From: Escherichia coli
GTDB lineage: Bacteria > Pseudomonadota > Gammaproteobacteria > Enterobacterales > Enterobacteriaceae
Length of the DNA: 64,000 nucleotides
Strand: one strand, 5' to 3'
Assembly (NCBI RefSeq): GCF_041886205.1
Contig: NZ_CP169029.1
This document shows, piece by piece, positions 34,906-46,930 of the stretch. The notes under the pieces are model-generated. The model was given only the letters and a program-made list of their open reading frames with translations, was not told the DNA's origin and ran no database searches. Numbering within the stretch: position 1 is the first letter of the stretch; every line of letters starts with the position of its first letter. The position numbers were made by a program, and so were the translations under genes.

Positions 34906-35282
34906 TCCTGTTCTTTAACTCTTAACGTAAAAACCGCTTCGGCGGCAATGCCGATCAGTTAAGGAGCGGTTGACTGATCCTTAAACTGCGGCACTATAAC
35001 GGCTTCCACTCCAGGGAGCCGTTTTCTTATGCCACTTCTCAATGATCTGTTCGCCGCATGAGCCTCAGCGCTGATGGCGAGGTCGGAGAAAAGGTCCTGT
35101 CGCGCAATGCCATTACTCAGGCCCGGCGACGGGTGGCACCGCGCCTCTGGAATGGCTCTTTCATCAGACGGCACAGATCCGGGGAGCAGAACATTACCCC
35201 AAAGATAGCTGGCGTGTATTACAGCCCTTTGTCGTGCACGGGGGACACCGGATAGCAGGAAGTCTGGGGTATATTGCTGGCC

Positions 35283-35370
35283 TACAATCTGATACGACGG
35301 AAAGCTACAAAGGCAGTAGAAAAGCATAAAAGAGTGCTGAAAGAAATCAGCTTCAAATTTGCCGTATCAG
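35283..35370. repeat. Direct repeat copy A flanking the PTS/porin module
   Basis: CTGATACGACGGAAAGCTACAAAGGCAGTAGAAAAGCATAAAAGAGTGCTGAAAGAAATCAGCTTCAAATTTGCCGTATCAG; similar copy at 41469-41554. Confidence 0.6.
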
Positions 35371-35566: not shown

Positions 35567-36613
35567 TTAGAACCAAAATTCAAGACCGGCGCGGTAAAAA
35601 TAGTCATTACTTTCTGAATTATAGGCGTCAGTTCGACCAATACGGACATAAGGGAGAAAACCATTTTCCATATTCATCATTAACTGTAAAGACGTCACTT
35701 TATCGGCGGTGTCTTTCTGGGTGACATTGTCTATTTTATAATCATTATTTTTGGCATACCCTAGCTTAGCACCATAGATACCATGCCAGTATTCGCCAAT
35801 TAAACTATAGGCATCCTGGGTGCTTTTAACATGGGTAATAAGGTCGGTCGTTTGACCATTTTTATAGCCCGCGTAAAACCTCAGACCAAGATCTGTAATG
35901 GGTATCTCGAGGCCCAAAACATAACCAGAGGCATCCTCCAGATTGTCATTTAACGTGTCATCGGTCGGTTGAACTGATTTGTTGCGAGTTTCTTCATAAG
36001 CAACATGTACTTTCACTGTAGAGAACGGCGTCCAGGTTACCCGTGAGCTGTAAGTCGTCGATCCAGAAACCGTAGAATCATCGCGATTAACGCTGAGAAC
36101 CACATCAAATCCCCCATAGTCTTTTGTTGCAAGGCTACCGTCATAGCGCACCATATTCGACATGCGATTGCTTTGATGCCAATGAACGTCACCTCCCCAG
36201 TCAAAAACGCGACCGAGACCGGGGTTGGTATAAGGCCAGTCAATGATTTCGTATAACGCCCCCTTCATGCGGCCAAAGCGAAGTTTCCCATACTTACCTT
36301 CAAACCCCACAAAGGTATCAAACTTTCCCAGACCAGAGTCGTTGGCCTCATAACCAACATAACCACTTTCAATCTGGAATATAACATTTACACCTTCAGT
36401 TATTTCTTTGTTCCCGCGAAAACCAATATATGATTCGTTATCGAGAGTATAATCATAATTCCTTTCATTGGCCTGAGTGGTAAAAATGGACATGGCTAAT
36501 TTACCATAGATTTCCAGGTTAAAATCTTTTGGCCCTCCCACTTGCATTGCATTTACTATTGTAGGCATAGTCGTAAGCAAAGAAATGCAAATAATATTAC
36601 TTGTTTTATCCAT
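35567..36613 (-). CDS. Outer-membrane porin (OmpC/OmpF-type general porin family), PTS-associated
   Basis: 348 aa; signal peptide; N-terminal ...LEIYGKL... and C-terminal ...GLEFWF beta-barrel signature ending in Phe. Confidence 0.7.
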   Translation of the reverse strand: MDKTSNIICISLLTTMPTIVNAMQVGGPKDFNLEIYGKLAMSIFTTQANERNYDYTLDNESYIGFRGNKEITEGVNVIFQIESGYVGYEANDSGLGKFDTFVGFEGKYGKLRFGRMKGALYEIIDWPYTNPGLGRVFDWGGDVHWHQSNRMSNMVRYDGSLATKDYGGFDVVLSVNRDDSTVSGSTTYSSRVTWTPFSTVKVHVAYEETRNKSVQPTDDTLNDNLEDASGYVLGLEIPITDLGLRFYAGYKNGQTTDLITHVKSTQDAYSLIGEYWHGIYGAKLGYAKNNDYKIDNVTQKDTADKVTSLQLMMNMENGFLPYVRIGRTDAYNSESNDYFYRAGLEFWF

Positions 36614-36833: not shown

Positions 36834-37691
36834 TTATTTAGTTCTATTGATAATGTCCAGTGAAGATATTATTTTCTCCACATTATCTCCCCGATTAATA
36901 AATAATAACGCATTGAATAAAACATCAACCATAAAACTTTGTGCAGCGGTAATCGTTGATGAATCTGACTGATAAGGATTTGACGTCCCACCCGTCAGTA
37001 AGACAACATCAGCGTACTGACTTAATGAGGAATGCTTTAGTTTACTAATAACAATAGTCATCGCCCCTTTCTCTTTCACTCTTCTTAACGCATCGACAAC
37101 ATCGCGCGTTTCACCAGAGTGTGAAATCGCAACCACCACATCCTTTTTCCCAACGTTGTTCGAATTTAAGGTCATGGTATGATTGTCGATCAGAGCATCG
37201 ACGTTTGCCATAATTCTCATGAATCGATATTTGGCATACAGGACGGATATGGCTGACATACCAATGCCGTAGAAATAAACCTGCCCCGCTTTGCTCAGAC
37301 CGTCAGCTGCACGCATTAGGGTCTGTTCCTCTTGCAGGGCAAGCGTTTCATTGATAACAACGTAATTATCATTAGCCAGCTGTTGTGCAATCCCTGTCAT
37401 GGAGTTCGTCTGCTCATCAAGAGAAATCACTTTTGATAACAATGTATCGTCTGTATCTGTTTCCAGGCGAAGAGTCGTCTTTAATTCTGAAAAGCCCTTG
37501 TATCCCAGCTTTTTACAAAACCGAATAATAGACGCCTCACCAACATTCATTGCATCCGCTAATTTTGCAATGCTCATATTGATGAATTGCATACGATTAT
37601 TTTTAATAAACTGGTAAATACGTATTTCAGTCTGGGTCAATTCATTAATTCTGGTGTTAATTAACGTGTTAAAGACGACTCGGGTTTTCAT
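36834..37691 (-). CDS. RpiR/MurR-family transcriptional regulator (HTH + SIS domain)
   Basis: 285 aa, N-terminal HTH (IAKLADAMNVGEASIIRFCKKLGYKGFSELK) and SIS sugar-phosphate binding domain. Confidence 0.8.
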   Translation of the reverse strand: MKTRVVFNTLINTRINELTQTEIRIYQFIKNNRMQFINMSIAKLADAMNVGEASIIRFCKKLGYKGFSELKTTLRLETDTDDTLLSKVISLDEQTNSMTGIAQQLANDNYVVINETLALQEEQTLMRAADGLSKAGQVYFYGIGMSAISVLYAKYRFMRIMANVDALIDNHTMTLNSNNVGKKDVVVAISHSGETRDVVDALRRVKEKGAMTIVISKLKHSSLSQYADVVLLTGGTSNPYQSDSSTITAAQSFMVDVLFNALLFINRGDNVEKIISSLDIINRTK

Positions 37692-37698
37692 TAAGTAC

Positions 37699-38004
37699 TC
37701 ACTCCATCTTTTTATAAACCTCTATCAATTCTGTCACAAGTTCACGGCAAAGCATACCTGTCATAAGGTGATCTTGGGCGTGAACCATCACCAGAGTGAT
37801 TTGCAGTTTACCTACCCCCTCATCCAGACCAATTAGCCGAGTCTGCACCTCGTGTGCCTGCCTGAAGGCATCGTCAGAAACCTTTAAAGAGGCTTCCGCT
37901 TCAGCAAAGCTCCCCGCTTTGGCGAACCTGAGCGCCTCCATGGCACAACTGCGACCTTCGCCAGCGGCGATAATCAGCGACATCACATCATTTTCATAGC
38001 TCAT
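37699..38004 (-). CDS. PTS lactose/cellobiose-family EIIA component
   Basis: 101-aa helical EIIA (ChbA/LacF-like). Confidence 0.8.
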   Translation of the reverse strand: MSYENDVMSLIIAAGEGRSCAMEALRFAKAGSFAEAEASLKVSDDAFRQAHEVQTRLIGLDEGVGKLQITLVMVHAQDHLMTGMLCRELVTELIEVYKKME

Positions 38005-38040: not shown

Positions 38041-38352
38041 TCATTTTGATGAAATCAGATCAACGGCCTGTTGATACACTTTTTCACCATTCATAGCCCC
38101 ATACAGTAACGGGCTGATGGCCTCTGATTTCTTGCCATTCATTTCTGCCAGCTTTTGTATTTCCGTCAGCTTAAATCGAATCTGAGGCGCAACCAGTACG
38201 ACGTCATAATTCGCGATGACATCTTTCAGAACATCAACGCCGTGAGCTTCAATAACTGATTCATGGCCGACGGAATTGGCGTAATCTTTCATTCGCTTCA
38301 TTAACATTGAGGTAGACATTCCCGCAGCGCACACTAAAAGTATCTTATTCAT
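38041..38352 (-). CDS. PTS lactose/cellobiose-family EIIB component
   Basis: 103 aa, N-terminal MNKILLVCAAGMSTSMLM with active-site Cys. Confidence 0.85.
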   Translation of the reverse strand: MNKILLVCAAGMSTSMLMKRMKDYANSVGHESVIEAHGVDVLKDVIANYDVVLVAPQIRFKLTEIQKLAEMNGKKSEAISPLLYGAMNGEKVYQQAVDLISSK

Positions 38353-38376: not shown

Positions 38377-39921
38377 TTATGTCACAGTAATATGTAAACC
38401 ACTCATCCGCCGGAAAGGGGCGGAAATGGAAGTGATCGTAGGACTGCGGCCGTTAAAGCTATAGTGAATATTTTCCATCCAGGTCTTTTCGATTTCAGAC
38501 TTAATTTTATCGAACACCATCGTTTCCTTTTCTTCAAATGAGGAATAGCTCTGGCCAATTGAAGGTAAATATTCAAACTGAACAGGGAAGCGGACTTCGG
38601 TCTGGTAAGCCCAGTCCGATACCAGCCTTTCTTTTAAGAAACGTTCGATAGCGTCAGCATTATCGCCCATGGTCGAAAAGACAAGGTTCGCTATCCCCGT
38701 ACCTAACGAATTACACGTTGTGTTCCAGCCTGCGTAGCCCTTAATGGTATCGAGTGCGCCGGCTTTATCCAGCGCCCGAATAAGTTCAGTTTCACCGCCG
38801 TTTGACATCGCCACATCGATGACTACCACTGACACCTGCAAAGCTCTGCTGGCAATTTCTTTTGCATAGGTCACCAGGTCACGATGGGTGTAGTAAGTGA
38901 TATTTTTATACTTTGGCTTCCGCACACCGGTATGCAGGTTATAGCCATAGCTAATATCAAAAGCCTCCTGCATTATCTCACCGCACCCATTGATCGCTAA
39001 AACAGGCAGCGAGGCATCATTATCGACCAACGTTATACCCGACGCGGCTGCATACGAACGCAGTGAGTGTATAAAAGGACGATCTTCATAATTCGGGATA
39101 TAGGTTTTAAACAGTTCGTTTGAATAGAGTGTGGTGGCTATAAAATCCTTTTTCCTCATCGACAAATAGGCTTTGGTCAACAATGTGCATCCAGACTCAT
39201 CGGTGCCAGGATGAACAAACACCCGGTCCTGTACCCCAAGCAGGGATATCTTTTCGTAAATGCGTTCCTGATCCTGCATCGTAAAACCAAATTCCGCGGT
39301 ATCGTCCAGCGGGATTATCAGCTGATCGATAATCTTTTCATCAACGAGTTCTATCGCATTCTCAATGAGCTGCAGATTTTTACTTCTGCGCGACAGCCAG
39401 TCGTCAAAGGAAGCAGAATTAATAGCGGAACGATGTGCAAGCAGATGCGCTTTTTCGTCTTCGCTCAGCCCGACACGCTTCTCTTTGTCAGACAGATAAC
39501 CAACCTGAAAAATTGAATGCCCGATATGTGCATAGTAATCCGGTTCTTCTTCACTGGAATTATATTTTGGCGTACGTAGCACCAGTGAAGATGCATAAAT
39601 CTTAAGTGCCGGATAACTTTCTTTCAGTGTTTTAATTTTATTTAACCTTGCTATAAGCTCAGTTAATTCCATCTGATGAATACGCGCGGGAAAAAGTCCA
39701 CCGTAGAGATACATATCCAGGCTGATAATTAACGCATCGGAATCGGCACAGTGGCTGTTTATAAAGTCATCTACAGCCTGATGTGAAGCTGGTTGTTTTT
39801 TGTATCCTAAAATCTCTTTCGCTGGCATTTTTAACGAAATATTGCTGTCCATCGAGGCCAGAGAAATCAGGAAGTCATAGTTATAAGGTCGGATATCCAG
39901 AGGTATGCTAATTATATTCAT
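38377..39921 (-). CDS. Uncharacterised 514-aa protein inside the PTS operon (possibly DUF4127-like; family assignment tentative)
   Basis: Long ORF between IIC and IIB with 15-25 nt gaps; no signal peptide or TM segments evident; no glycoside hydrolase family 1 or 4 motifs recognised. Confidence 0.6.
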   Translation of the reverse strand: MNIISIPLDIRPYNYDFLISLASMDSNISLKMPAKEILGYKKQPASHQAVDDFINSHCADSDALIISLDMYLYGGLFPARIHQMELTELIARLNKIKTLKESYPALKIYASSLVLRTPKYNSSEEEPDYYAHIGHSIFQVGYLSDKEKRVGLSEDEKAHLLAHRSAINSASFDDWLSRRSKNLQLIENAIELVDEKIIDQLIIPLDDTAEFGFTMQDQERIYEKISLLGVQDRVFVHPGTDESGCTLLTKAYLSMRKKDFIATTLYSNELFKTYIPNYEDRPFIHSLRSYAAASGITLVDNDASLPVLAINGCGEIMQEAFDISYGYNLHTGVRKPKYKNITYYTHRDLVTYAKEIASRALQVSVVVIDVAMSNGGETELIRALDKAGALDTIKGYAGWNTTCNSLGTGIANLVFSTMGDNADAIERFLKERLVSDWAYQTEVRFPVQFEYLPSIGQSYSSFEEKETMVFDKIKSEIEKTWMENIHYSFNGRSPTITSISAPFRRMSGLHITVT

Positions 39922-39936: not shown

Positions 39937-41259
39937 TTATTTCTGTTTATTCATGGCGAAAACAAATGGCAGATAAATGATAACCGACAAGCTGATTAAA
40001 AATACGGATAGCACCGCAGCTCTCCAGTCTCCTCCCGTAGCCAGGAAGGCGCTAATCACTGGTGGCGTTGTCCATGGCACAAGAACATATGTATGGTTAA
40101 TCAAATCCATTGCCGTCGCGGCATAAGCAATCACGATGCTGATAATCGGAGTGAATAAAAATGGTACAATTAGCACCGGGTTGAACATAATTGGCAAACC
40201 AAAAATGATGGGTTCATTTATGTTGAACAACATCCCAGGAGTTGCCAGACGAGTAATCGCACGATGCTCTGATTTTTTCGCTGCAATCCATAAAGCAATC
40301 AGTAAGCCGATTGTCTGGCCTCCGCCGCCCATAAATCCAAAGGCATCGATGAACGGTTTTGTGACGATATGTGGGATTTCAAGGCCAGCCTTAAACGCGG
40401 CAGTATTTTCCTGAATCGCCACCAGCAGGGTTGTCTCAGTAATAGGGTACATGATACTGGCACCATGGATCCCTGCCCACCATAATCCGTTTTGCGTCAA
40501 AAGTAGTCCTATTACTCCGCTCAGACCCTGTAAAATATTTTGCAGCGGAGCCTGAATCATCAGAGTAACGATTTCATGTATGTTTTTGTTGAAGAGACTG
40601 CTTAACGACCATGCAAAGAGACTCAGCAAGGTTAACACCAGGATCATCGGTATTAATACGTTAAAGCTCCTTGATACGGAGGGGGGAACTGAATCAGATA
40701 AAGTAATTTTCAATTTAGATGAGGCCGAAACTTTGCGAAAAAGTTCAGTGGAAATAAGCGCCACAAATATGCCTACAAACATACCAGACGCGCCACTTTC
40801 ATTGCCGCTGATTAGCCCCGAAACCTGAAAAACCTCGCCCGTCGGCGCTGTAACGGGAATGGTGACCGGGAACAAAACAAATAAACATGCCAGTGAGAAG
40901 ATGGCATACGTTATCCCATCCTCGCCATAGCTGTTGGCTAATCGATATGAAATCATCACCGTTGCCAGAAAGGCGAGAATATTCAGCGTTCCGTTATAGA
41001 CGCGGATGCCAATTTCCTGTAGGTGGCGAACCCATGCGCCTTCCAGCCCCAGAAAACCGACTAAACCGGATTCGCCGTTGAGCAATACATTATTTATTAA
41101 TATAAATAGAGACGCAGCAATAATTAAAGGCATGAGCGCGACAAATGATTCCCTCACTGCCGAAAGATGTCGCTGTCCTGAAAAATCGCCCGCCCAATTA
41201 GAGATCTTGTCAATGAAAACAAGACCACTCCCACTTTTAATTTTATTGATGAAATTCAT
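39937..41259 (-). CDS. PTS lactose/cellobiose-family EIIC permease
   Basis: 440-aa polytopic membrane protein, ChbC/CelB-like. Confidence 0.85.
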   Translation of the reverse strand: MNFINKIKSGSGLVFIDKISNWAGDFSGQRHLSAVRESFVALMPLIIAASLFILINNVLLNGESGLVGFLGLEGAWVRHLQEIGIRVYNGTLNILAFLATVMISYRLANSYGEDGITYAIFSLACLFVLFPVTIPVTAPTGEVFQVSGLISGNESGASGMFVGIFVALISTELFRKVSASSKLKITLSDSVPPSVSRSFNVLIPMILVLTLLSLFAWSLSSLFNKNIHEIVTLMIQAPLQNILQGLSGVIGLLLTQNGLWWAGIHGASIMYPITETTLLVAIQENTAAFKAGLEIPHIVTKPFIDAFGFMGGGGQTIGLLIALWIAAKKSEHRAITRLATPGMLFNINEPIIFGLPIMFNPVLIVPFLFTPIISIVIAYAATAMDLINHTYVLVPWTTPPVISAFLATGGDWRAAVLSVFLISLSVIIYLPFVFAMNKQK

Positions 41260-41468
41260 ATAAGAAAATCTCGCGCCCTAGATATTAGTTTCAGCGTATT
41301 TTATTTATCCCCTTTCGTAATACTGTTAGCTTTGTCACAAAACTCCAAAAATTCCAACTAAAATGATACTAAATGGAGTTTTTTTGGTTTTGTAATCTAC
41401 CGTTCTGGAGTCTGGTATTAACAATAAAAGCGGCTTTCGCAGGAGGATAAATCATCAGCATTTGTCCA

Positions 41469-41554
41469 GACAAGCTGATACGACGGGAAGCTATAAAGGT
41501 ACAGAAAAGCATAAAAGAGCGCCGTTAGAAATCAGCTTTAAATTTGCCTTTCAG
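41469..41554. repeat. Direct repeat copy B flanking the PTS/porin module
   Basis: CTGATACGACGGGAAGCTATAAAGGTACAGAAAAGCATAAAAGAGCGCCGTTAGAAATCAGCTTTAAATTTGCCTTTCAG; roughly 80-85% identical to copy A by eye. Confidence 0.6.
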
Positions 41555-41759
41555 TTTATACAACAGAAATGATAGTGCCGGGAAACACGTCGTCGCCGGG
41601 AATGCTCCCAAGAGACTGGAGTATCGGAGGGGAAACCTGGAAGCGCTGTTCATAACAAAACGCCCCGACCGTCAAGGCCGCGGGTGGTGAAGATATCAAA
41701 ACGTCCATGCTGTTCCGCTTAAGTGAACGGCATTGCGCTGCAGTGGGTTTTTTATGCCT

Positions 41760-42584
41760 TCAAAGTAGTAGCGGTAGGGTCGCACTCGCCGTTTGCTGGC
41801 TCACATCGTTGTACTTTTCATCCAGTCCAAACAGCGACGTGGTGAGCAGTTCCACCAACAGCATGACACCAACCTTGGCGTTTAGCGCGCCAGCACTCAA
41901 CGGACCTTCTGGTTTGGCTGCGACCAGTTGAATATCACTCAGCGAAGCCAGCGGACTATGCGGTGTATTACTCAGCGCCAGTATGCGTACACCTTGCTTA
42001 CGCGCCAGTTTAACCACATGCAGCAGATCGCGTGTGGAGCCTGAACTGGATATTGCCACTACCAGCGTGTCTTTGCTTAGCGTTGTAGCGTTCATAGCAG
42101 CACGGTGCATGTCGCTGAACAATTGCGCGGGTTTGCCGAGGCGCAGGAGTTTGTAATGTAAATACTCTCCCAGAATAGCGCTGGCCGCTACGCCATAAAT
42201 TTGTACCGACTGAGCCTGATGCAGCGCCAGAGCGGCTGCTTCCAGTAATGTTCTGTCGAGTAATTTTGCCGTGTCCTGCAGCGCTTGCACGGATTCATTG
42301 ACGACATTGTCAATCTCATCACCGCTGCGCTCTACCAGCTCTCCTTGCCGGAGATCGAGTGCCAGCGCCATCTTAAATTCGTTATAGCCCTTACACCCCA
42401 GCGTACGGCACAGACGTGTGACGCTCGCCTCGCTGGTGTCGCTTTCACGCGCCAGTTCGGTAATCGTCAGGTAGACCACTCTTGCCGGATCGCTAAGCAC
42501 AAACTCTCCCAGCTTCTGTTGAGTTCGACTATATCCATCAACGCTCTGGCGCAATCTCAGCAGTAGGTTTTCATTTTCTGACAT
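41760..42584 (-). CDS. RpiR/MurR-family transcriptional regulator (second copy)
   Basis: 274 aa, HTH + SIS domain; divergent from the EIICB gene. Confidence 0.8.
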   Translation of the reverse strand: MSENENLLLRLRQSVDGYSRTQQKLGEFVLSDPARVVYLTITELARESDTSEASVTRLCRTLGCKGYNEFKMALALDLRQGELVERSGDEIDNVVNESVQALQDTAKLLDRTLLEAAALALHQAQSVQIYGVAASAILGEYLHYKLLRLGKPAQLFSDMHRAAMNATTLSKDTLVVAISSSGSTRDLLHVVKLARKQGVRILALSNTPHSPLASLSDIQLVAAKPEGPLSAGALNAKVGVMLLVELLTTSLFGLDEKYNDVSQQTASATLPLLL

Positions 42585-42749: not shown

Positions 42750-44306
42750 ATGATGCAAATATTTAGCGGCGCTTCGTCAGGCGCATGGTTTGAAAAAGCG
42801 CAGCGGTTCGGCAAATCGTTCATGCTGCCGATTGCGGTATTGCCCGCAGCGGGGTTGTTGTTGGGGATTGGTGGGGCTCTGTCGAATCCCAATACGCTGA
42901 CGGCCTACCCATTCTTGAATGTCGACTGGCTGCAGGCAATTTTCACGATCATGACCAGCGCAGGTTCTATCGTGTTTGCCAACCTGTCGGTGCTTTTTGC
43001 GGTTGGTGTTGCCGTGGGACTGGCGAAAACGGATAAAGGCACGGCGGGCCTTGCGGCATTGCTGGCTTTTCTGGTGATGAATGCCACCATCAATGCTTTG
43101 TTAACGCTCAACGGAACGTTGGCGCACGAAAATCCAGGTGCTGTGGGCCAAGGGATGACGCTGGGCATTCAGACGCTGGAAACGGGCGTTTTTGGCGGGG
43201 TCGTGATTGGTCTGGTCACCTGCGCACTGCATAACCGTTTCAATAAAGTCTCACTCCCTCAGTTTCTTGGCTTTTTCAGTGGTTCGCGTTTTGTACCGAT
43301 TATCAGTTCGCTTGCCGCGATTGTAGTGGGGGTGATCATGACGGTGGTATGGCCGCATTTCCAGAAGCTCATTTTTGGACTGGGCGGTCTGGTGGATGCG
43401 ACGGGCTATCTGGGGACGCTACTGTATGGTTTCATTCTGCGTATGCTTGGCCCACTGGGTTTACACCATATCTTTTATTTGCCGTTCTGGACAACAGCGC
43501 TGGGAGGGAGCGAAATCGTCAACGGTCAACTGGTCGAAGGCACCCAGCGTATTTTCTTTGCCCAACTTGCCGATCCGAATACGCAGCAGTTTTATGCCGG
43601 TACCTCGCGCTTTATGTCCGGGCGCTTTATCACCATGATGTTTGGCCTGCTTGGCGCATGCCTCGCGATGTACCACACGGCAAAACCGGAGAAGAGAAAG
43701 CTTGTCGCCGGACTGCTGTTGTCGGCGGCCCTGACTTCTTTCCTGACGGGCATCACTGAGCCTATTGAGTTCTCCTTCCTGTTTGTGGCTCCGGTGTTAT
43801 ATGTCATTCACGCCTTCTTCGATGGTCTGGCGTTTATGATGGCGCATATTTTACATATCACTATTGGGCAAACCTTTTCGGGTGGACTGATCGATTTCCT
43901 CCTCTTCGGCGTGCTACAGGGGGAAGCGAAAACCAACTGGATGTACGTCCCCTTGGTTGGGGTTCCGTGGTTCTTTCTTTACTACTTCACCTTCCGTTAT
44001 TTGATTAACCGTTTTAACTGGCTGACGCCCGGGCGCGAGAACACAGCCCAGGTGGAGTCCGGTCTGCCTCAGAGCGAACGCGCAGCGGCAGTCATCGCCG
44101 GACTGGGAGGCAAAGAGAATCTGGAAGAGGTGGACTGTTGCGCCACACGCTTACGCGTGACGGTGAAAGAGAGCAGCAAGGTAGATGAAGCTGCGCTGAA
44201 AGCGACCGGAGCGCGTGGCGTAATTATTCGCGGCAACGGTGTTCAGGTGATTTATGGCCCGCATGTCACCATAATTAAAAATGAAGTCGAAGAGATCTTA
44301 TCATGA
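42750..44306 (+). CDS. PTS glucose/N-acetylglucosamine-family EIICB component
   Basis: 518 aa; N-terminal polytopic EIIC, C-terminal EIIB with CATRLR phospho-Cys motif; ATG 42750 with GGGGAG RBS (ORF track starts at GTG 42711). Confidence 0.8.
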
Positions 44307-44995
44307 TGAAAACTGTACTGGATTCCCTGAAAGGTAAACTAATTGTCTCCTGCCAGGCGCTGGAAAATGAACCCCTGCACAGCCCGTTTATTATGTCGCG
44401 TATGGCGCTGGCGGCAGCGCAGGGCGGTGCGGCAGGTATCCGTGCTAACAGCGTGGTAGATATTCGCTCGATCAAAGAGAGCGTCTCCCTGCCGGTAATA
44501 GGGATTATCAAGCGTGATTATCCGGGCTGCGAGGTGTTTATTACGGCCACTTTGCAGGAAGTGGATGAGCTGATGACCGTTGAGCCGGAAATTATTGCTC
44601 TGGATGCGACAGCGCGCCCGCGCCCCGGTGGGCAAATGCTGGAAGAGCTGGTTATGCAAATCCGTGTCCGCTATCCGTCCGTACTGCTGATGGCGGATAT
44701 CGCCACCGTCGATGAGGCGGTAACAGCCGAGCGGCTGGGTTTTGACTGCGTGGGCACCACGCTCTATGGCTATACCGCGGACACTGCCGGGCATGTAATG
44801 GTGGATAACGACTGCGGTTTTTTACGTGAGGTGTTGGCGGCGGTCACAATACCGGTCGTGGCGGAAGGTAATATCGATACCCCGGAACGCGCCGCACGTT
44901 GCCTGGCATTAGGCGCGCATACCGTGGTGGTTGGAGGCGCTATCACGCGTCCGCAGCAGATAACGGCACGATTTGTCGCGGCGATCGCCTCGTAA
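44303..44995 (+). CDS. Putative N-acylmannosamine-6-phosphate 2-epimerase (NanE family)
   Basis: 230 aa, [14 protein letters not shown]... and ...GTTLYGYT... resemble NanE; start overlaps the EIICB stop. Confidence 0.65.
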
Positions 44996-45066: not shown

Positions 45067-45738
45067 ATGCAGTACCCGATTAACGAGATGTTCCAGACCC
45101 TGCAAGGTGAGGGTTACTTTACCGGCGTCCCCGCCATTTTTATTCGTTTACAGGGATGCCCGGTTGGCTGTGCCTGGTGCGACACCAAACACACCTGGGA
45201 AAAGCTTGAGGATCGGGAAGTCTCCCTTTTCAGCATTCTGGCGAAGACCAAAGAGAGTGATAAGTGGGGGGCGGCGAGCAGTGAAGACTTGCTGGCTGTC
45301 ATTGGTCGCCAGGGATACACCGCGCGGCATGTGGTGATTACGGGGGGGGAGCCTTGCATTCATGATTTGCTGCCACTGACTGACCTACTCGAAAAGAACG
45401 GTTTTAGCTGCCAGATCGAAACCAGTGGTACTCATGAAGTACGCTGCACACCGAATACCTGGGTTACCGTATCGCCAAAGCTGAACATGCGCGGCGGCTA
45501 TGAAGTGTTGTCACAGGCACTGGAGCGAGCCAACGAAATCAAGCATCCTGTGGGGCGCGTACGCGATATTGAAGCACTGGATGAACTACTGGCAACGCTG
45601 ACCGATGATAAACCGCGAGTCATTGCACTGCAGCCGATTAGCCAAAAGGATGATGCCACACGATTGTGCATTGAAACCTGTATTGCGCGTAATTGGCGTT
45701 TGTCGATGCAAACACATAAATATTTAAATATTGCCTAA
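45067..45738 (+). CDS. queE: 7-carboxy-7-deazaguanine synthase
   Basis: 223 aa from MQYPINEMFQTLQGEGYFTGVPAIFIRLQGCPVGCAWCDTKH (radical-SAM CxxxCxxC variant); ORF track start 44899 is an upstream extension. Confidence 0.9.
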   Translation: MQYPINEMFQTLQGEGYFTGVPAIFIRLQGCPVGCAWCDTKHTWEKLEDREVSLFSILAKTKESDKWGAASSEDLLAVIGRQGYTARHVVITGGEPCIHDLLPLTDLLEKNGFSCQIETSGTHEVRCTPNTWVTVSPKLNMRGGYEVLSQALERANEIKHPVGRVRDIEALDELLATLTDDKPRVIALQPISQKDDATRLCIETCIARNWRLSMQTHKYLNIA

Positions 45739-46077
45739 TTACACATTTATAAGCGTTATAAATGGGTGGAACTTGTAAAGAATTCCACTCATTTGTATTA
45801 TTTGTCGCCCCTGAAAACTCATCCATCTTGCCCATCCCGGACTAATCATTATCATTCTCTACAAATTCTGCGGCGTTAATTTTTCGCTGGAGTGAAAATT
45901 ATTGCGGCGAAGTTTGGTAGATTTTAGTTTGTATAGAGTTATTTTAAATATTTACCTTTTTAATCAAAAGATTAAGTGCTCTTTAACATAATGGATGTGT
46001 TGTTTGTGTGATACTGTAAAGTTGGTAGATTGTGACTGGCTTAAAAAATCATTAATTAATAATAGGTTATGTTTAGA
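45739..46077 (+). promoter_or_regulatory. AT-rich CRISPR leader region
   Basis: About 340 bp of AT-rich non-coding DNA directly upstream of the first repeat. Confidence 0.6.
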
Positions 46078-46350
46078 GAGTTCCCCGCGCCAGCGGGGAT
46101 AAACCGTTCGCTGGCAATCCACTCAGGAATTTCGGGAAGAGTTCCCCGCGCCAGCGGGGATAAACCGGGCAGTACCGACATGGACGGTCACCACGAGTTG
46201 AGTTCCCCGCGCCAGCGGGGATAAACCGTGTATAGCGCCAAAATTGACGAAAGACATGTTGAGTTCCCCGCGCCAGCGGGGATAAACCGGTTGTAGCTGA
46301 CAATGTAAATCATGGATTTACGAGTTCCCCGTGCCAGCGGGGATAACCAT
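46078..46350 (+). CRISPR. Type I-E CRISPR array: 5 repeats (last degenerate), 4 spacers of 32 nt
   Basis: 29-bp repeat GAGTTCCCCGCGCCAGCGGGGATAAACCG at 46078, 46139, 46200, 46261; degenerate GAGTTCCCCGTGCCAGCGGGGATAACCAT at 46322. Confidence 0.95.
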
Positions 46351-46360
46351 TCAGGTATGT

Positions 46361-46930
46361 TCAGGCCGGGCAGTTTCCCGCCCGGCCTTCCTCACTTACG
46401 CATTCGACCAGCTCTGGATCGAATCCGCATTCCCCATGCATCACTTCATACGATTTTTTCAGTATTACATCATTATGTTTGGTTAGGTCTTTGAAAATGC
46501 CTTTATTCATCGCGTCGTAGCGTTTGGCATTGCTCTCAATCGGTATAAAGATATCTTTCACGCGAACCATTTTGTCGACAGCCGTTGCGTAATCCGGGTA
46601 TAGTCCCAGACCTACCGCCGTATTAATCGCTGCCCCCAGACTTGCACAACCGTTAATGGCGTTACGTCGTGCCGGAAGGTTGAACATGTCGGCAAAAATC
46701 TGCATAAACAGATCGCTGTTCGAACCGCCGCCAGTAATGATCACATGCTTTGCAAAGTGATTCATTTCATTACGCATATTGTCGTAATTGTTCTTCAGCG
46801 TCAGAGCCACGCTTTCCAGTATCGAACGATATATCCATGCGTAACGCGCAAGCGCTGCCTGCAATACCGGCACCAATAATAATAATGTCGCAGTCATCTT
46901 CCGTGTCATACCCCAAATATCCAGACTCAA
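46361..46930 (-). pseudogene. ygcE: 3' remnant of an FGGY sugar kinase gene (ygcE-like), 5' part deleted
   Basis: C-terminal FGGY motifs (ARYAWIYRSILESVALTL..., IITGGGSNSDLFMQIFADMFNLPARR) in a 189-codon ORF; a full FGGY kinase is about 490 aa; N-terminal 30 residues look out of frame. Confidence 0.65.

Follow-up and report, generated by a model that had tools for sequence, protein, structure and literature searches.

A DUF4127-family protein in a chitobiose-like phosphotransferase cassette of Escherichia coli is a candidate enzyme of an N-acetylmannosamine-6-phosphate-producing pathway

What does a 514-amino-acid protein of a family without an assigned function do in the middle of a sugar-uptake operon? 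The question is raised by an open reading frame (ORF) in a 64,000-nucleotide stretch of the Escherichia coli chromosome between eno and cysJ (assembly GCF_041886205.1, contig NZ_CP169029.1; hereafter the window), where it lies between the genes for enzymes IIC and IIB (EIIC and EIIB) of a phosphotransferase system (PTS). We found that the protein belongs to DUF4127, a family named as a domain of unknown function. Sequence comparison and gene context across the family suggest that it is, with good confidence, a catabolic enzyme of a pathway that produces N-acetylmannosamine-6-phosphate (ManNAc-6-P).

The DUF4127 ORF is a genuine and intact gene that was acquired horizontally and encodes a cytoplasmic protein. 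A first-pass annotation of the window, made from the sequence alone, had given its extent and its position between the IIC and IIB genes exactly and had omitted that it lies on the minus strand (Table 1). The EIIC gene is 15 bp upstream and the EIIB gene 24 bp downstream, the ATG is preceded by a purine-rich stretch (GAGAAAGAG) resembling a Shine-Dalgarno sequence, and the translation of the opposite strand is riddled with stops. The ratio of nonsynonymous to synonymous substitution rates is 0.117 against an 87%-identical orthologue. The annotation had also claimed that there is no transmembrane segment or signal peptide, and our data agree: the maximum 19-residue Kyte-Doolittle value is 1.25 and the N-terminus is not signal-peptide-like, which indicates a soluble, cytoplasmic protein. 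The window is 100% identical to the corresponding region of strain 6EVA, and the IS4 remnant listed in Table 1 was placed from the RefSeq record of that strain with coordinates converted. The protein itself is 100% identical to WP_001021574.1 of 6EVA.

The protein has a full-length match to Pfam PF13552 (E=7.3e-121), in which residues 3-505 align with model positions 1-482 of 489. Since this assignment covers the whole protein and RefSeq/PGAP names it 'DUF4127 family protein', the tentative assignment to DUF4127 in the first-pass annotation was correct, and the word 'unrecognised' that accompanied it was too strong, given that both labels existed already. An alignment of 43 diverse relatives, with identity down to 34%, contains 41 invariant columns, all of which are retained here; the sequence is that of an ordinary full-length member with no distinctive feature. 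A profile search recovered 2,676 representatives at 50% clustering. NCBIfam contains no model for the protein, no second Pfam family was found in it or in any of the 43 relatives, PDB searches with the single protein and with the family profile gave no meaningful match, and the searchable literature contained no mention of DUF4127 or PF13552. The family is catalogued, and it is without assigned function, solved structure or literature.

Several enzyme families that could occupy this position were tried and rejected. As the first-pass annotation had noted, the protein lacks the features of glycoside hydrolase (GH) families 1 and 4 and of ChbG, with no Pfam match to any of these even at E<=10. 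The GH1 6-phospho-beta-glycosidases (PF00232) and the NanA/DHDPS class I aldolases (PF00701, with a Schiff-base lysine in the barrel) failed on sequence and on the absence of a TIM barrel, (beta/alpha)8 in the case of GH1. The ChbF-type NAD+/Mn2+-dependent GH4 enzymes, recognised by PF02056/PF11975 matches and a GH4-homologous N-terminal NAD-binding Rossmann domain, were likewise rejected, and the ChbG/YdjC deacetylases failed for lack of PF04794. GH170, formerly DUF871 (MupG, ChbE), was rejected since there is no PF05913 match and its TIM-barrel plus beta-sandwich architecture is not seen. HMMER against Pfam returned DUF4127 and no characterised enzyme family.

The AlphaFold2 model, built from the 43-sequence alignment, has a mean predicted local distance difference test score (pLDDT) of 94.1 and a predicted template modelling score (pTM) of 0.94. 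It consists of alpha/beta sandwich domains with helical inserts and is not a TIM barrel; GH1-, GH170- and NanA-like architectures are therefore excluded at the level of predicted fold. Fold searches gave no whole-fold relative outside the family, Foldseek against AFDB50 matching DUF4127 proteins only, and no solved structural relative was found. The invariant residues are mostly Asp, Glu, Arg, Tyr and Asn (for example Y73-G-G, R116, E125-E126, D206-D207, D241-E242, E279-D280, D369, W399-N-T and R505) and are located at the C-terminal ends of beta-strands, where the model places the motifs PLDxRPxN, YGG, RxPxYxSxEEP, PxDD, PGxDE, YEDRP, DxxxxNGG and YAGWNT. In the predicted structure this arrangement is typical of an active-site crevice. 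The invariant pairs D206-D207, D241-E242 and E279-D280 are candidate catalytic carboxylates.

The gene belongs to a six-gene cassette, all on the minus strand, that encodes a porin, EIIC, EIIB and EIIA, an RpiR-type regulator and the DUF4127 protein. We found a TIGR00410 EIIC together with separate Lac-family EIIB and EIIA genes and intergenic gaps of 7-36 bp, as expected of a Lac/Chb-family PTS operon. The sole solved relative of the EIIC is ChbC of Bacillus cereus (3qnq, E=3e-64), and the best solved relatives of the porin are chitoporins (5mdq, 5mdo and 7eqm; E=6e-35), matched over almost the full length. Judged by these matches, the transport parts of the cassette (EIIC, EIIA and porin) resemble chitobiose systems. 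The operon had been described as a cellobiose-type PTS; the Lac/Chb type stands, and the likely substrate would be a ManNAc-containing compound and not cellobiose. The closest orthologous cassette (locus L092, 87% amino acid identity) has all six genes, identically ordered, at another chromosomal site, adjoining pgaABCD. A Vibrio cassette (62% amino acid identity) also keeps the gene order, with a divergent NanE gene upstream, and the porin has the same position in both. None of the three minimal cassettes (these two and that of E. coli) encodes another candidate for a cleavage step, and the DUF4127 protein is the only unassigned catalytic component of the minimal proteobacterial cassette.

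We scanned one genome per GTDB species for gene neighbourhoods of the family, which gave 412 DUF4127 loci, of which 80 were fetched; ORFs were called and clustered by all-against-all BLASTP, and recurrent clusters were annotated. There were 86 non-redundant loci from many phyla, 17 of them orphans (mostly from cyanobacteria or on short contigs) and 69 with informative neighbours, to which the following counts refer. The ManNAc-6-P 2-epimerase NanE was present in 50 loci; at the cluster level, 47 of 53 NanE ORFs lay within 3 kb of the DUF4127 gene and 48 of 53 shared its strand. Regulators of the RpiR type occurred in 52 loci. Thirty loci contained a Lac-type PTS and 32 a CUT1-type ATP-binding cassette (ABC) importer, with no co-occurrence of the two. 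ROK kinases were found in 31 loci, comprising 30 of the 39 non-PTS loci and 1 of the 30 PTS loci. Cof-type HAD phosphatases were present in 25 loci, 24 of them PTS loci in which the phosphatase gene is immediately upstream of DUF4127. Esterases from four unrelated families occurred in 26 loci, a PF12831 flavoprotein in 22 and GH38 in 14, and NagA and NagB in two. BLASTP with a query that we take to be NanA of E. coli found no homologue in any of 88 loci.

Gene fusions repeat several of these associations. DUF4127 is fused to NanE (the NanE part scores 292 bits against a cut-off of 189), to ROK kinases in at least six representatives, to esterases of two families (alpha/beta-hydrolase and GDSL), to a GHL10-like domain and to an AAC(3)-like acetyltransferase. 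A HAD-DUF4127 fusion of 776 amino acids is encoded in Listeria riparia (locus L058, 9197-11527) and also appears in AFDB as W7DBC3. An apparent 871-amino-acid fusion in locus L087 was discarded as an ORF-calling artefact, a read-through of high-GC upstream sequence. NCBIfam scores were too close to type the ROK kinases as BglK, NanK or glucokinase.

The ABC-type loci and a few others contain further recurrent sets. A triad of PF12831 flavin adenine dinucleotide-dependent oxidoreductase, GH38 and DUF4127 recurs in ABC-type loci (L021, L027, L031, L040, L073, L083, L089 and others), accompanied in L089 by a DcuC-type carrier and a hydantoinase-like ATPase. The nearest solved relative of the substrate-binding protein in ABC-type loci is MsBP (6wpm), which falls in a cluster predicted to be ChiE-like, the ligand of MsBP being itself unsettled. 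The single Bacteroidota locus, with GH38, ROK and SusC/D, fits the overall picture and is not decisive. Paenibacillus loci L069, L080-L082 and L086 represent a third type of context, without NanE. DUF4127 is accompanied there by a Gfo/Idh/MocA oxidoreductase and by a TIM-barrel protein resembling xylose isomerase, a combination that recalls oxidative glycoside-cleavage pathways.

PTS and ROK kinase complement each other almost perfectly across the loci, which argues that a phosphorylated intermediate, made by either of them, is required, and the linkage and fusion with NanE argue that this intermediate leads to ManNAc-6-P. We infer on this basis that the protein is an enzyme and that ManNAc-6-P is its product. 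The earlier idea that the protein acts on the phosphorylated product of the PTS gains weight from the near-exclusivity (one overlap in 69 loci) and from the NanE neighbours and fusion, NanE being an enzyme that takes a sugar 6-phosphate. Cleavage of a phosphorylated glycoside is favoured by the NanE and kinase context, by the position in the enzyme slot as the only unassigned enzyme, and by the oligosaccharide- and chitobiose-like transport; whether the protein is specifically a phospho-glycosidase is, from this context, close to an even call and slightly short of one.

We hypothesized the following pathway. The chitoporin-like porin would let in an amino-sugar glycoside, which the chitobiose-type EIIC/B/A would import and phosphorylate. 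The DUF4127 protein would split the phosphorylated product into ManNAc-6-P and an aglycone, and NanE would convert ManNAc-6-P into GlcNAc-6-P (GlcNAc, N-acetylglucosamine) for the Nag pathway, with the RpiR regulator sensing a sugar phosphate. The bond is putatively glycosidic, and the simplest candidate substrate would be 6'-P-ManNAc-beta-1,4-GlcNAc, in which GlcNAc is the aglycone. The most far-reaching version, in which DUF4127 is a new glycoside hydrolase family of 6-phospho-N-acetylmannosaminidases, with a fold lacking a solved relative, that recycles ManNAc-containing cell-wall fragments, is tentative and we regard it as somewhat doubtful. If it is true, there would be an undescribed route for the wall-teichoic-acid linkage disaccharide ManNAc-beta-1,4-GlcNAc or for secondary cell-wall polymers. 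Firmicutes, Actinobacteria, Vibrio and a few E. coli would use it, and cyanobacteria might do so to turn over their own walls.

PTS operons that take up N-acetylhexosamine (HexNAc) disaccharides are familiar; what differs here is DUF4127 in the enzyme slot. By analogy, the protein would take the slot of NanA in sialic-acid clusters and of MupG, ChbE or ChbF in HexNAc-disaccharide PTS operons. In the E. coli chb operon, the ChbBCA PTS and the ChiP porin serve uptake, and the ChbG deacetylase and the GH4 phospho-glycosidase ChbF act inside the cell. The cassette likewise combines Lac/Chb-type EIIC/B/A with a dedicated outer-membrane channel and a putative intracellular enzyme for a phosphorylated disaccharide, and its EIIC, EIIA and porin are homologues of chitobiose components. 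However, it lacks ChbG, ChbF and ChbR and has an RpiR-type regulator instead, its porin is like the trimeric chitoporin of the Vibrio type, DUF4127 stands in the enzyme slot, and the partner across the family is NanE.

The closest described analogue of the proposed pathway would be the mupG-murQ-murP-murR operon of Staphylococcus aureus, in which MupG (DUF871, now GH170) is a 6-phospho-N-acetylmuramidase (PMC6262408). ChbE of Lacticaseibacillus paracasei is a GH170 phospho-beta-N-acetylglucosaminidase (PMC12791066). In both, uptake of a HexNAc disaccharide through a PTS yields a phosphorylated product, and a former DUF protein then cleaves this to HexNAc-6-P and GlcNAc, as we propose for DUF4127. 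In the mup system, moreover, a dedicated enzyme makes GlcNAc-6-P from the released 6-phosphate (MurQ there, NanE here), and the operon is under an RpiR-family regulator. Since the downstream partner of DUF4127 is NanE, and not MurQ or NagA, the released sugar should be ManNAc-6-P. In contrast to MupG and ChbE, DUF4127 is unrelated in sequence (no PF05913) and is predicted to adopt an alpha/beta sandwich and not a TIM barrel.

Several observations weigh against a simple phospho-glycosidase. Cof-type HAD phosphatases occur in 24 of the 30 PTS loci and in one fusion, and such a model has no need of them; one possibility is that the HAD relieves sugar-phosphate stress in the manner of YigL. GH38 and the PF12831 flavoprotein are frequent in ABC-type loci, where a more complex substrate is possible and the glycosidase could be a protein other than DUF4127. 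The SASA and GDSL esterases are a hint toward sialic acids. The 17 of 86 loci without informative neighbours are mostly cyanobacterial orphans. NanE was not found within 10 kb of the closest orthologous cassette (L092), and in the window it sits in a separate module beyond an IS4 remnant.

An unlikely alternative is that DUF4127 is MurQ-like and strips an ether, ketal, acyl or other substituent from a modified ManNAc phosphate (for example pyruvylated ManNAc), or isomerises a precursor, to give ManNAc-6-P, with glycosidic cleavage done elsewhere by GH38 or extracellular enzymes. The close linkage and fusion with NanE and ROK are in keeping with this, the GH38 and GHL10-like proteins of many ABC-type loci could be the glycosidases, the numerous invariant Arg residues suggest an anionic substrate, and the esterases and the AAC(3)-like acetyltransferase fusion show the weight of substituent chemistry. 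However, the minimal PTS cassettes combine chitobiose-type transport with no further hydrolase, and no neighbour conserved across locus types indicates a substituent.

The main rival, to which we give a rather small chance, is that the PTS brings in a sialic or other nonulosonic acid as its 9-phosphate and that DUF4127 is a non-homologous replacement of NanA, a lyase that converts Neu5Ac-9-P (Neu5Ac, N-acetylneuraminic acid) into ManNAc-6-P and pyruvate. Canonical sialic-acid clusters contain the NanS esterase, the NanA lyase, the ROK kinase NanK, NanE, the RpiR-type NanR and a SatABC-type ABC importer. All of these except NanA have counterparts in DUF4127 loci (esterase, ROK, NanE, RpiR and CUT1-type ABC), DUF4127 stands at the step that produces ManNAc or ManNAc-6-P, and NanA itself is missing from all 88 loci. 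SASA-/GDSL-type (sialate O-acetylesterase-like) genes adjoin DUF4127 in 13 loci, Lys42 of DUF4127 is almost invariant in the family alignment, and one locus has a DcuC-type anion carrier. The transporters tell against this route, since the EIIC is of the Lac/Chb type and the porin, EIIA and substrate-binding protein are all chitobiose-like; to our knowledge, Lac/Chb-family EIICs act on di- and oligosaccharides only. GH38 in 14 loci and two ROK kinases in many loci also imply oligosaccharides, soil Bacillaceae, Paenibacillus and cyanobacteria, in all of which DUF4127 is common, are unlikely consumers of sialic acid, and the protein has neither a TIM-barrel/DHDPS fold nor a Pfam aldolase match.

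That DUF4127 is no catalyst of the sugar pathway and instead assists or regulates the transporter, as DUF3284 proteins in PTS operons have been proposed to do, is very improbable: known families provide no assignable catalytic motif and, with DUF3284, chb-type operons offer a precedent of a non-enzymatic DUF, but a 500-residue protein with 41 invariant, mostly charged residues occurs equally with PTS, with ABC importers and as an orphan gene, and its fusion partners are enzymes (NanE, ROK, esterases and HAD) and never transporter parts. A biosynthetic role, in which DUF4127 would act like a Neu5Ac-9-P synthase and condense the ManNAc-6-P made by NanE before the HAD dephosphorylates the product, can scarcely be credited, since, despite the HAD gene immediately upstream in 24 loci, the one fusion and the resemblance of ROK, NanE and HAD to the animal kinase-NANS-NANP set for sialic-acid biosynthesis, the operons have a catabolic build (PTS or binding-protein-dependent importers, RpiR repressors, esterases, NagA/NagB), the HAD is missing from proteobacterial cassettes and ABC-type loci, and no CMP-sialate synthetase or glycosyltransferase is among the annotated clusters present in at least five loci, no dedicated search having been made.

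The functional hypothesis of ManNAc-6-P release by DUF4127 is specific, testable and apparently unpublished: the literature searched contained no paper on an 'N-acetylmannosaminidase' and nothing relevant on NanE, PTS and teichoic-acid recycling in combination. If true, it would give a function to an entire DUF family, add an enzyme activity found in no paper of that literature, and account for bacterial recovery of ManNAc from sources other than sialic acid. We know of no described fate of the teichoic-acid linkage disaccharide.

Table 1. Features of the DUF4127 cassette and the neighbouring NanE module, in window coordinates
Feature	Position	Strand	Evidence or remark
Outer-membrane porin, relative of Vibrio chitoporin, last gene of the cassette	35567-36613	-	220-bp gap before
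MurR/RpiR-family regulator, helix-turn-helix and SIS sugar-phosphate-binding domain	36834-37691	-	NF008458 E=4e-39
PTS EIIA, Lac/Chb type	37699-38004	-	Top NCBIfam diacetylchitobiose IIA NF007768, E=2.9e-35, under cut-off
PTS EIIB, Lac/Chb type	38041-38352	-	TIGR00853 E=1.2e-24
DUF4127-family protein	38377-39921 (stop codon included)	-	514 aa, ATG start
PTS EIIC, lactose/cellobiose/chitobiose family, first gene of the operon	39937-41259	-	440 aa; TIGR00410 362 bits (cut-off 236)
Conserved putative upstream control region	41324-41381	-	65-120 bp ahead of EIIC ATG
IS4-family transposase remnant between cassette and NanE module	41475-41722	+	RefSeq annotation of 6EVA
RpiR regulator of neighbouring module	41760-42584	-	
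Glc-family EIIBC of neighbouring module	42750-44306	+	PtsG-like TIGR02002
NanE, ManNAc-6-P 2-epimerase, of neighbouring module	44303-44995	+	NF002231 310 bits (cut-off 189)

The cassette is mobile, horizontally acquired and rare in E. coli. Its six genes have a GC content of 40-46%, against 50-53% in the flanks, and it is present in 9 of 5426 complete E. coli genomes. Five of the nine carriers have it interrupted by insertion sequences (IS), with IS1 in the EIIC gene in AH04, AH02 and CT01 and ISEc52 in the DUF4127 gene in LHM10-1 and CP52E; these interruptions argue that the cassette is decaying across part of its small host range. With so few carriers, more than half of them already disrupted, its importance for E. 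coli biology is small.

About 150 bp ahead of the EIIC gene are conserved among E. coli, L092 and Vibrio. This region contains an inverted repeat, AAACTCCA (41381-41374) and TGGAGTTT (41347-41340) separated by N26, which adjoins a CRP-like TGTGA-N6-TAACA at 41339-41324. The two elements are a candidate RpiR operator and a candidate CRP site, respectively. Since the sequence is conserved, the putative control region has outlived the IS4 insertion farther upstream. A promoter consensus scan gave a background-level result and was not used.

The neighbouring RpiR/EIIBC/NanE module, an accessory set that includes a second NanE, is a probable ManNAc PTS route and, although outside the cassette, the likely downstream partner. 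It is far more widespread than the cassette, occurring in 481 of the 5426 genomes, mostly at 87-89% identity. The pair of PtsG-like EIIBC and NanE also adjoins DUF4127 loci of Shouchella and Anaerosalibacter (L024, L028, L029 and L044).

Elsewhere in the window, the 660-bp gap between eno and the porin gene contains a 122-amino-acid ORF (34959-35327, minus strand) that is unannotated in the identical RefSeq genome, shows no sign of coding and is probably spurious. Beyond the NanE module, the type I-E repeat of E. coli, GAGTTCCCCGCGCCAGCGGGGATAAACCG, recurs five times, spaced 61 bp apart, in a small CRISPR array (46075-46358). The array is flanked by queE, a frameshifted pseudogene (~45067-45739), and by an N-terminally truncated fragment of an FGGY-family kinase gene (46397-46844), both as annotated in the identical RefSeq genome. 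Deletions have remodelled the eno-cysJ interval.

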